This document shows, in pieces, positions 53,084-53,782 of a stretch of DNA of 64,000 nucleotides. Source of the stretch: Escherichia phage vB_EcoM_G2494. How positions within the stretch are numbered: the stretch's first letter is position 1; every line of letters starts with the position of its first letter. The position numbers and the translations under genes are program-made. The stretch lies in sequence record MK327935.1, one strand, 5' to 3'. Below the pieces are notes generated by a model. That model saw only the letters and a list, made by a program, of their open reading frames with translations. It was not told the origin of the DNA and did no database searches.

Positions 53084-53782
53084 CTAACCACGGGTATAGT
53101 GTTCCAGAACAACTGTCAGATGAATATATTCTAATAAATCTTTCCAAAAGTCAACATCTGGTTCTTCCTGCATACCGTTTTTCTTTGCCTCTTCACGAGC
53201 GAGTTTAACACGCTCGTAGAGATCTTTCAATTCTTCCCGCACATTATCAAAGGTTCTTTCTCCTAACTTACACGCTAAAATAGAAGAACGTCGCGCGAGC
53301 GGGAATTGTAGATCACCTGTCTGATAGATTTCAAGTAGCTGATAACCAACACGCAGAGCATGAGAAAGATCTTTCCAGTTACTGAAATACTTTTCAGATT
53401 TGGCTACCTGCTTTTTGAGATAGCCAGACAAACCCCACATACCAACATGATAGAATTTATCGCGATGTGTTCTGATGTATTCCCATTCTCTGGAGGATTC
53501 AATCAACATGTTACTAGGCGCGTGCACCATGTCAATAGCGCCGATATCGCCTTTACATGCCAGATTGATAAACCGTTTTAGACTGAACATATTAACATCA
53601 ATATCGTCTTTGGTGTTCTTGATACCTTGACCGCTAGTGCTTTGGTCATAGTGTTCTTTCATCGATCCTAAGATAATTTCTTTAGCAGTCGGAACAAAGA
53701 TACCACGATAATCTTTATCTGAATTTTCAGTATCGAGGCCGTATAAGTGAGATCCGAAGACCATTTTAACCATTGTATGCAT
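53084..53782 (-). CDS. nucleotidyltransferase (Pol-beta/MNT fold) of unknown specificity
   Basis: 232 aa; FGSHLYGLDTENSDKDYRGIF matches the GS-x(9-13)-D-x-D NTase signature; helical C-terminal domain. Confidence 0.6.
   Translation of the reverse strand: MHTMVKMVFGSHLYGLDTENSDKDYRGIFVPTAKEIILGSMKEHYDQSTSGQGIKNTKDDIDVNMFSLKRFINLACKGDIGAIDMVHAPSNMLIESSREWEYIRTHRDKFYHVGMWGLSGYLKKQVAKSEKYFSNWKDLSHALRVGYQLLEIYQTGDLQFPLARRSSILACKLGERTFDNVREELKDLYERVKLAREEAKKNGMQEEPDVDFWKDLLEYIHLTVVLEHYTRG

Follow-up and report, generated by a model that had tools for sequence, protein, structure and literature searches.

The RlaP family of nucleotidyltransferases was named by Burroughs and Aravind, who predicted a role in RNA repair, as their work is cited by a recent preprint (10.64898/2025.12.29.696909) and by PMC7824862. 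RlaP was predicted to restore the nucleotides that RloC and similar nucleases excise (PMC7824862); in 2008, the removal of the wobble nucleotide by RloC had been proposed to defeat the Pnkp/Rnl1 repair of phages (PMC2610378). For two bacterial members, PfRlaP and PaRlaP, the preprint of December 2025 describes the addition of 1–2 NMPs (or dNMPs) to the 3'-OH of RNA; 3'-phosphate ends, DNA and proteins are not accepted (10.64898/2025.12.29.696909). Both enzymes prefer Mn2+ as the metal and act on a nicked-tRNA mimic more readily than on free strands, and they partly rescue the aminoacylation of a tRNA that lacks one nucleotide of the anticodon loop (10.64898/2025.12.29.696909). The tested enzymes show little NTP specificity and labelled rRNA-, tRNA- and fragment-sized E. 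coli RNAs as well as single-stranded oligoribonucleotides; the 3'-OH that they leave on the product can be used directly by ligases of the 5'-phosphate type (10.64898/2025.12.29.696909). In the crystal structure of PfRlaP, an N-terminal nucleotidyltransferase domain is followed by a helical C-terminal domain, and a terminal helix is present as well (10.64898/2025.12.29.696909). In the PF10127 network of the same preprint, NrdC.11 of phage T4 is described as a protein "of unknown function" and belongs to cluster 5, the tested enzymes to cluster 1a (10.64898/2025.12.29.696909). The T4 gene can be deleted in the laboratory (PMC9825161).

The DNA analysed here, a 64-kb stretch that is called the window in the following, derives from a Krischvirus (RB49/Phi1/JSE type). 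It contains a gene of 699 bp on the minus strand, whose reading frame runs from ATG to TAG; an earlier note on this DNA had placed an ORF at these positions (53084–53782) but had given no strand. The gene and its surroundings comprise the following features.

53084..53782, minus strand: nrdC.11 coding sequence, 232 codons plus TAG, for a 27 kDa Pol-beta nucleotidyltransferase of the RlaP family, PF10127 (ORF list, Pfam, PHROG, annotation, T4 identity).
53447..53782, minus strand: N-terminal nucleotidyltransferase (alpha/beta) domain, approximately residues 1–112 (AlphaFold2 secondary structure; ungapped alignment of approximately residues 1–130 to T4-type relatives).
53711..53755, minus strand: catalytic signature G10-S11 ... 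D22-x-D24 with the first two metal-binding carboxylates (conservation in 116 homologues).
53597..53599, minus strand: D62, close to the beginning of strand 61–67 and probably the third of the catalytic carboxylates (98% conserved).
53087..53437, minus strand: C-terminal helical (KNTase-C/HEPN-like) domain, residues 116–232, with conserved K137, H141, R144, P161, K172 and G174.
53790..53794, minus strand: Shine-Dalgarno sequence GAGGG, 7 nt 5' of the ATG (direct sequence reading).
53813..53859, minus strand: putative intergenic control region after vs.6 (consensus scan only).
53859..53835, minus strand: terminator-like hairpin with a 10 bp stem and a T-run (consensus scan only).
53841..53813, minus strand: sigma-70-like promoter match TTGGCT-17-TATGAT with TG, overlapping the hairpin (consensus scan only).

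The terminator-like hairpin and the promoter match are both located in the spacer of 86 nt that separates vs.6 from nrdC.11. The G+C content of the gene equals that of the window, 40.1%. Between it and the Phi1 orthologue, 13 codons differ synonymously and 1 non-synonymously, which indicates that nrdC.11 is protein-coding and under purifying selection. Two ORFs on the plus strand within the gene (73 and 51 aa) are unsupported and were taken as chance ORFs, since homology and codon-level conservation lie wholly on the minus strand.

At the nucleotide level the gene is 95–99% identical to 58 phage records, all of them from Krischvirus/RB49-like coliphages (RB49, Phi1, JSE, GEC-3S). It is publicly annotated as nrdC.11 in Phi1, JSE and RB49, with the RefSeq product name "nucleotidyltransferase". 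A translated search found homologues in 1,579 phage records, chiefly from T4-like Straboviridae, the carriers among which infect Escherichia, Klebsiella, Shigella, Aeromonas and Acinetobacter. The earlier note knew of no T4 equivalent. This view has to be abandoned, since T4 NrdC.11 (NC_000866, 55435..56445; NP_049709.1, 336 aa, 'nucleotidyltransferase') is 46.5% identical to the window protein over 230 aligned positions. The profile and structure comparison that the note had proposed for assigning the subfamily leads to RlaP: Pfam PF10127 ("RNA repair pathway DNA polymerase beta family") matches with 53.9 bits and E=2.8e-14, well above the gathering cut-off of 23 bits, and aligns residues 7–191 to profile positions 24–198 of 249. 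In addition, PHROG 388 "nucleotidyltransferase" is matched with E=2.8e-78. An exhaustive HMMER search collected 3,414 clusters (50% identity) at E<=1e-3 and 169 at E<=1e-30. An NCBIfam search with the window protein gave no match, and the defence models of PADLOC gave only noise (E 0.003–0.03, very short stretches) with a 2023 library that may predate Hailong.

Judged by its sequence, the gene is thus the Krischvirus orthologue of T4 nrdC.11, belonging to the PHROG 388 group and to the RlaP/PF10127 family. It is therefore already known, as an annotated T4 nrdC.11 orthologue in a described enzyme family, and the description as an orphan of unassigned subfamily, given on first reading of the sequence, does not hold. 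The supposed orphan enzyme turns out to be a named, widely conserved gene of the T4 family, and the enzyme family to which it belongs has a defined biochemical activity.

The catalytic signature of Pol-beta nucleotidyltransferases, which consists of a G[GS] turn, a DxD motif and, on a strand further along the chain, another acidic residue, is present in the window protein. The peptide FGSHLYGLDTENSDKDYRGIF corresponds to residues 9–29 of the 232-aa protein and contains the motif G10-S11, D22-x-D24, in agreement with the N-terminal GS...D-x-D signature described before. In an alignment of 116 representative homologues, from which all conservation figures were taken, G10 is conserved in 100%, S11 in 98%, D22 in 99%, D24 in 98% and D62 in 98% of the sequences. 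Loss of the D-x-D pair in homologues had been named in the earlier note as an argument against its assignment; the pair is retained almost throughout. Two residues come into question as the third carboxylate. Asp60 is 97% conserved, yet it is replaced by Asn in T4 NrdC.11, which retains Asp62. Asp62 is therefore the better candidate. Residues conserved in at least 90% of the 116 homologues are G10, S11, L13, Y14, G15, S21, D22, D24, P31, N56, D60 and D62 in the region 10–62, F71, G78, D84, W100, R107, Y121 and Q125 in the region 71–125, and K137, H141, A142, R144, P161, K172 and G174 in the region 137–174.

The window protein is considerably shorter than most of its relatives. The family length is mostly 310–350 aa with a median of 323, versus 232 aa here, and the alignment of the relatives to the window protein falls into two blocks. 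Approximately 104 aa that are found in T4 NrdC.11 (residues ~131–240) are missing from the Krischvirus protein, with the junction after approximately residue 129. This central subdomain is absent in only 5 of the 116 aligned homologues. In a rough neighbour-joining tree the short forms branch from among the long forms at three or more distinct positions, which suggests a repeated loss of the segment. The insert of T4-type NrdC.11 (residues ~133–238) is confidently predicted to form a beta subdomain of five strands that is preceded and followed by a helix, for which no recognisable match was found in the PDB. On the Pfam RlaP profile the short forms align contiguously (the closest short homologue at positions 23–229), whereas the T4-type match ends at position 143. 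Hence, the compact protein represents the canonical core of the family. At the deletion junction, residues 129 and 135 are Ser and Asn in the window protein but Tyr and Asp in over 90% of the relatives.

The naturally compact 232-aa architecture without the central subdomain is one of two new, albeit modest, observations at this locus. Because the subdomain is absent and residues 129 and 135 are exchanged, substrate recognition by the Krischvirus protein may differ from that of its relatives, and the repeated loss, which affected Krischvirus as well as two or more further lineages, might reflect a changed substrate. As a natural variant in which the central subdomain is shown to be dispensable, the 232-aa protein is possibly convenient for biochemistry.

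A relative of 234 aa with 57% identity is encoded on a metagenomic contig with Krischvirus-type synteny, where the order of genes is M15 endolysin, vs.8, glycyl-radical gene, an inserted HNH endonuclease and RlaP. The inserted gene codes for an HNH/NUMOD4 homing endonuclease (3951..4547 of the contig segment) and separates the glycyl-radical gene from the RlaP gene. Its insertion junction corresponds to the site of the terminator/promoter-like spacer in the window.

An AlphaFold2 model calculated with the 116-sequence alignment is highly confident, with a mean pLDDT of 96.7 and a pTM of 0.91. The N-terminal domain is predicted to contain strands at residues 2–9, 23–30, 44–48 and 61–67 and to remain alpha/beta until approximately residue 112. 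The C-terminal half is predicted to consist of helices 116–131, 136–155, 165–172, 178–201 and 210–230, the last of which is long. This two-domain layout agrees with what has been published on the crystal structure of PfRlaP (nucleotidyltransferase domain, helical domain, terminal helix). The five helices between residues 116 and 230 bear out the helical domain that had been expected behind the N-terminus, and the model together with the PF10127 and PHROG 388 matches substantiates the assignment as a minimal Pol-beta-fold nucleotidyltransferase.

A Foldseek search with the model returned the best E-values for nucleotidyltransferases that modify antibiotics, namely ANT(4') kanamycin nucleotidyltransferase (E=3.3e-5, TM ~0.4), AAD(9) and LinB. 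These matches would fit an enzyme of the ANT/KNTase type that nucleotidylylates a small molecule, either an antibiotic-like compound or a signalling nucleotide. The structural scores are weak, though, and a biological rationale is absent, so that we regard such an activity as most improbable. The closest solved structure is HalB of the Hailong system (PDB entries 9dbh, 9dbi and 9dbj; E ~1e-4, TM 0.47–0.50), with 13% identity across the structural alignment. It may have come out on top simply because the fold library contains no RlaP structure: searches by sequence, profile or fold found no RlaP chain in the PDB copy that was used. A single-sequence phmmer search of the PDB sequences gave nothing at E<=10, and the profile of 116 sequences (hmmsearch, E<=1) gave only spurious coiled-coil-like matches such as SAMTOR and troponin. 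The proximity of NrdC.11-type proteins to HalB in structure is the other modest new observation.

According to a 2026 review, HalB synthesises poly-dA from a tyrosine primer, and its partner in the defence operon of the host is the channel HalA. As HalB is the top structural match, the phage protein could likewise be imagined as a template-independent synthase of DNA or oligonucleotides. It would then produce, for example, oligodeoxyadenylate, by which a HalA channel is kept closed at a time when the signal made by the host itself is being broken down by nucleases of the phage. The bacterial RlaP enzymes, however, did not extend DNA, and self-priming is unreported for them (10.64898/2025.12.29.696909). 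Moreover, neither phmmer nor profile searches against the PDB reveal a sequence relationship to HalB, the identity in the structural alignment is as low as given above, no HalA-like partner is adjacent to nrdC.11, and the rank of HalB may have the trivial cause already mentioned. Taken together, we consider a HalB-like function very unlikely.

Modification of a host protein has to be weighed in the same context. MNT antitoxins AMPylate and thereby inhibit HEPN toxins, and an MNT- or AMPylase-like phage enzyme would inactivate a protein of the host, for instance an anticodon nuclease or an RNase toxin with a HEPN domain. Against this stands the fact that Pfam, NCBIfam and PADLOC gave no match to MNT, HEPN or Fic-like families, and that the structural scores to such proteins are below those to HalB. 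Furthermore, bacterial RlaP left the proteins of E. coli unlabelled (10.64898/2025.12.29.696909). Protein nucleotidylylation is accordingly given little credence. One half of an MNT-HEPN toxin-antitoxin pair was considered as a separate candidate and rejected, because sequence searches detected no HEPN or MNT family in the nucleotidyltransferase or in its neighbours. In a broader form, the closeness to HalB and the acceptance of dNTPs by the family might be read as a sign that the phage NrdC.11 clade as a whole does not refill tRNAs. Its members would instead be oligonucleotide synthases or nucleotidylylases of HEPN nucleases and act as decoys or inhibitors against abortive infection; to this we likewise assign a small probability.

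All genes of the block around nrdC.11 are located on the minus strand. Directly upstream lies vs.6, which encodes a GrcA-like glycyl-radical protein. Downstream, nrdC.11 is followed by three small paralogous ORFs and then by regB at a distance of 0.8 kb, vs.1, vs and the macro-domain gene tk.4. The genes vs.8 and M15 endolysin are also found nearby. Three of the surrounding genes were assigned by domain matches.

53869..54285, minus strand: vs.6, glycyl-radical (GrcA-like) domain (domain match).
50288..50743, minus strand: tk.4, macro domain (domain match).
60995..61465, minus strand: 57B, Acb1 anti-CBASS phosphodiesterase (PF23474, E=1.3e-51), 7.2 kb from nrdC.11.

Of the neighbours that had been listed before, the GrcA homolog is thus immediately adjacent as vs.6 and regB is close, but the Acb1 gene is too distant to be counted among them. 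The T4 gene, although also part of this early region, occupies another site, with mobD and nrdC.10 on its two sides, whereas the Krischvirus gene is flanked by vs.6 and the small ORFs/regB. Since the position differs, the neighbourhood says little about function. For this reason the earlier analogy with neighbouring genes, from which a modification of nucleotides, RNA ends or a host protein had been considered, is weak; the part of it that concerns RNA ends as counter-defence is nevertheless the best-supported proposal.

Several further genes of the window deserve a remark with respect to annotation. In Phi1 the RefSeq label of 57B is still 'RNA ligase' despite the clear Acb1 match. The three tandem ORFs of 64, 86 and 111 aa directly downstream of nrdC.11 (52230..53062, minus strand) are mutually paralogous (40% identity at E=2e-13; 33% at E=8e-5) and share the motif Y..TP...GYI.DD.G..I.I.L..C.HL.G..W.L. 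They are labelled hypothetical (ORF095-097) in Phi1, and a Pfam search with the three sequences gave no match. A 'hypothetical' ORF of 489 aa in the interval of genes 55/55.2 (29210..30679, minus strand) shows a weak match to DEAD/DEAH-box helicases (E=3.4e-6, slightly over the Pfam cut-off). For eight more large hypothetical ORFs at 31.8–39.9 kb and one at 12.5–13.2 kb, Pfam yielded no match; two of the eight are labelled 'goF mRNA metabolism modulator' in Phi1.

The proximity of regB in the same early-gene block, 0.8 kb downstream, might point to a more general tailing of RNA 3' ends during host takeover. In that case 1–2 nucleotides would be added to fragments of host or early phage RNA, for example to RegB fragments that have been dephosphorylated by Pnkp. 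The tails would serve as a toehold for 3' exonucleases and speed up the turnover of mRNA. To our knowledge, tails of 1–2 nt have no link to RNA decay in E. coli. In addition, the proximity to regB is not conserved, as seen from the T4 neighbours mobD and nrdC.10. The activity of RlaP is indeed not tRNA-specific, since varied E. coli RNAs were labelled, but a nicked-tRNA mimic is preferred over free strands (10.64898/2025.12.29.696909). We therefore regard tailing as unlikely, if less so than the activities discussed above.

For a role in tRNA repair, the partner enzymes and the tRNA genes of these phages are relevant. Phi1 encodes pseT (Pnkp, with kinase and HAD_PNKP phosphatase domains) and rnlA (Rnl1, with both T4 Rnl1 domains, among them the tRNA-specific C-domain), which are located approximately 75 kb from nrdC.11; these classical RNA-repair genes lie outside the window. 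In addition to the full-length pseT, Phi1 has ORF229 beside nrdB (17341..17817 of the segment), which codes for another PNKP-type HAD phosphatase, 158 aa long and not fused to a kinase domain. Neither tRNA genes nor Rfam families were found across the 64-kb window, and 158 of the 164 kb of Phi1 (96%) that were scanned contain no tRNA gene. Krischviruses consequently appear to rely entirely on the tRNAs of the host.

The linkage of RlaP to RNA-repair genes is limited to co-occurrence at the genome level, as in Phi1, in Mycobacterium phage Lewan and in jumbo phages, for which the distribution of RlaP "closely mirrors the RNA ligases" (PMC7824862). Lewan is an unrelated, temperate mycobacteriophage, and its gp35 (4968..5714 of the segment), a distant PF10127-like nucleotidyltransferase, is encoded in the integrase/repressor region. 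Genes for a Ro-like protein, a polynucleotide kinase and an RNA ligase are located elsewhere in the Lewan genome, which also carries at least 12 tRNA genes. A ligase gene beside the PF10127-like gene was found neither in Lewan nor in Bacillus phage BC-VP. As there is no adjacent ligase in Phi1, Lewan or BC-VP, the defining 'ligase-associated' context is absent in these phages.

By analogy with the bacterial enzymes it is likely that NrdC.11 is an RNA 3'-terminal NMP transferase. The presence of Pnkp and Rnl1 in Phi1 and the lack of tRNA genes suggest the refilling of trimmed tRNA ends before ligation as the most likely role. NrdC.11 would thus provide an accessory step in the 'heal and seal' pathway for tRNA. 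In the mechanism that we propose, a host anticodon nuclease would cut a tRNA and trim nucleotides from it (wobble excision of the RloC type), and Pnkp would convert the ends into 3'-OH and 5'-P. NrdC.11 would then refill the missing nucleotide(s), and Rnl1 would ligate the ends. By homology, the NTP would be bound via two divalent metal ions, probably Mn2+, held by Asp22, Asp24 and Asp62. One or two NMPs would be transferred in an untemplated manner onto the 3'-OH of an RNA located in the cleft between the nucleotidyltransferase and helical domains.

The fact that nrdC.11 can be deleted from T4 is what would be expected of a conditional counter-defence gene. Some observations count against tRNA repair. 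With little NTP specificity most of the refilled tRNAs would be wrong, pseT and rnlA are remote from nrdC.11, T4 NrdC.11 falls into another network cluster than the tested enzymes, and HalB, the nearest match among solved structures, synthesises DNA. Overall, we consider it somewhat more probable than not that the RlaP-family protein NrdC.11 acts at RNA 3' ends in phage tRNA repair. That the repair of nuclease-trimmed tRNA is the function for which the gene has been selected is, again by analogy, a possibility with slightly less than an even chance. If the proposed role holds, T4-like phages would possess a three-enzyme pathway of tRNA repair (Pnkp, NrdC.11 and Rnl1), and the damage by 'smart' anticodon nucleases such as RloC would be reversible by phage enzymes. 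Since the idea of tRNA repair has already been published, the window contributes only the naturally minimised variant of 232 aa.

Compared with described systems, the window protein has the general plan of a minimal Pol-beta nucleotidyltransferase with a four-helix KNTase-C/HEPN-like domain in common with ANT(4')/KNTase and the MNT-HEPN nucleotidyltransferases. For ANT(4'), AAD(9) and LinB, in contrast, there is neither a family-level match in sequence nor a close structural match. HalB shares the fold with the window protein but differs in that sequence similarity is undetected (phmmer E<=10, profile hmmsearch E<=1 against the PDB) and that its partner HalA is absent here.

Bacterial RlaP from P. 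fluorescens and P. aeruginosa belongs to the same Pfam family and has the same two-domain architecture and the three catalytic aspartates. It is encoded in RtcB-RlaP-RtcA operons and hence together with an RNA ligase, whereas the phage gene is not part of such an operon. The ligase partner also differs, as bacterial RlaP is associated with the 3'-P ligase RtcB and the phage protein would be served by the 5'-P ligase Rnl1. Within the family network, the bacterial enzymes tested (cluster 1a) are separated from T4 NrdC.11 (cluster 5). T4 NrdC.11 is distinguished from the Krischvirus protein of 232 aa by its length of 336 aa, which includes the insert of approximately 104 aa, and by another map position. 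The two have in common the GS/DxD/D residues, the K/H/R/K residues of the helical domain, the name and the character of an early, non-essential accessory gene of Straboviridae.
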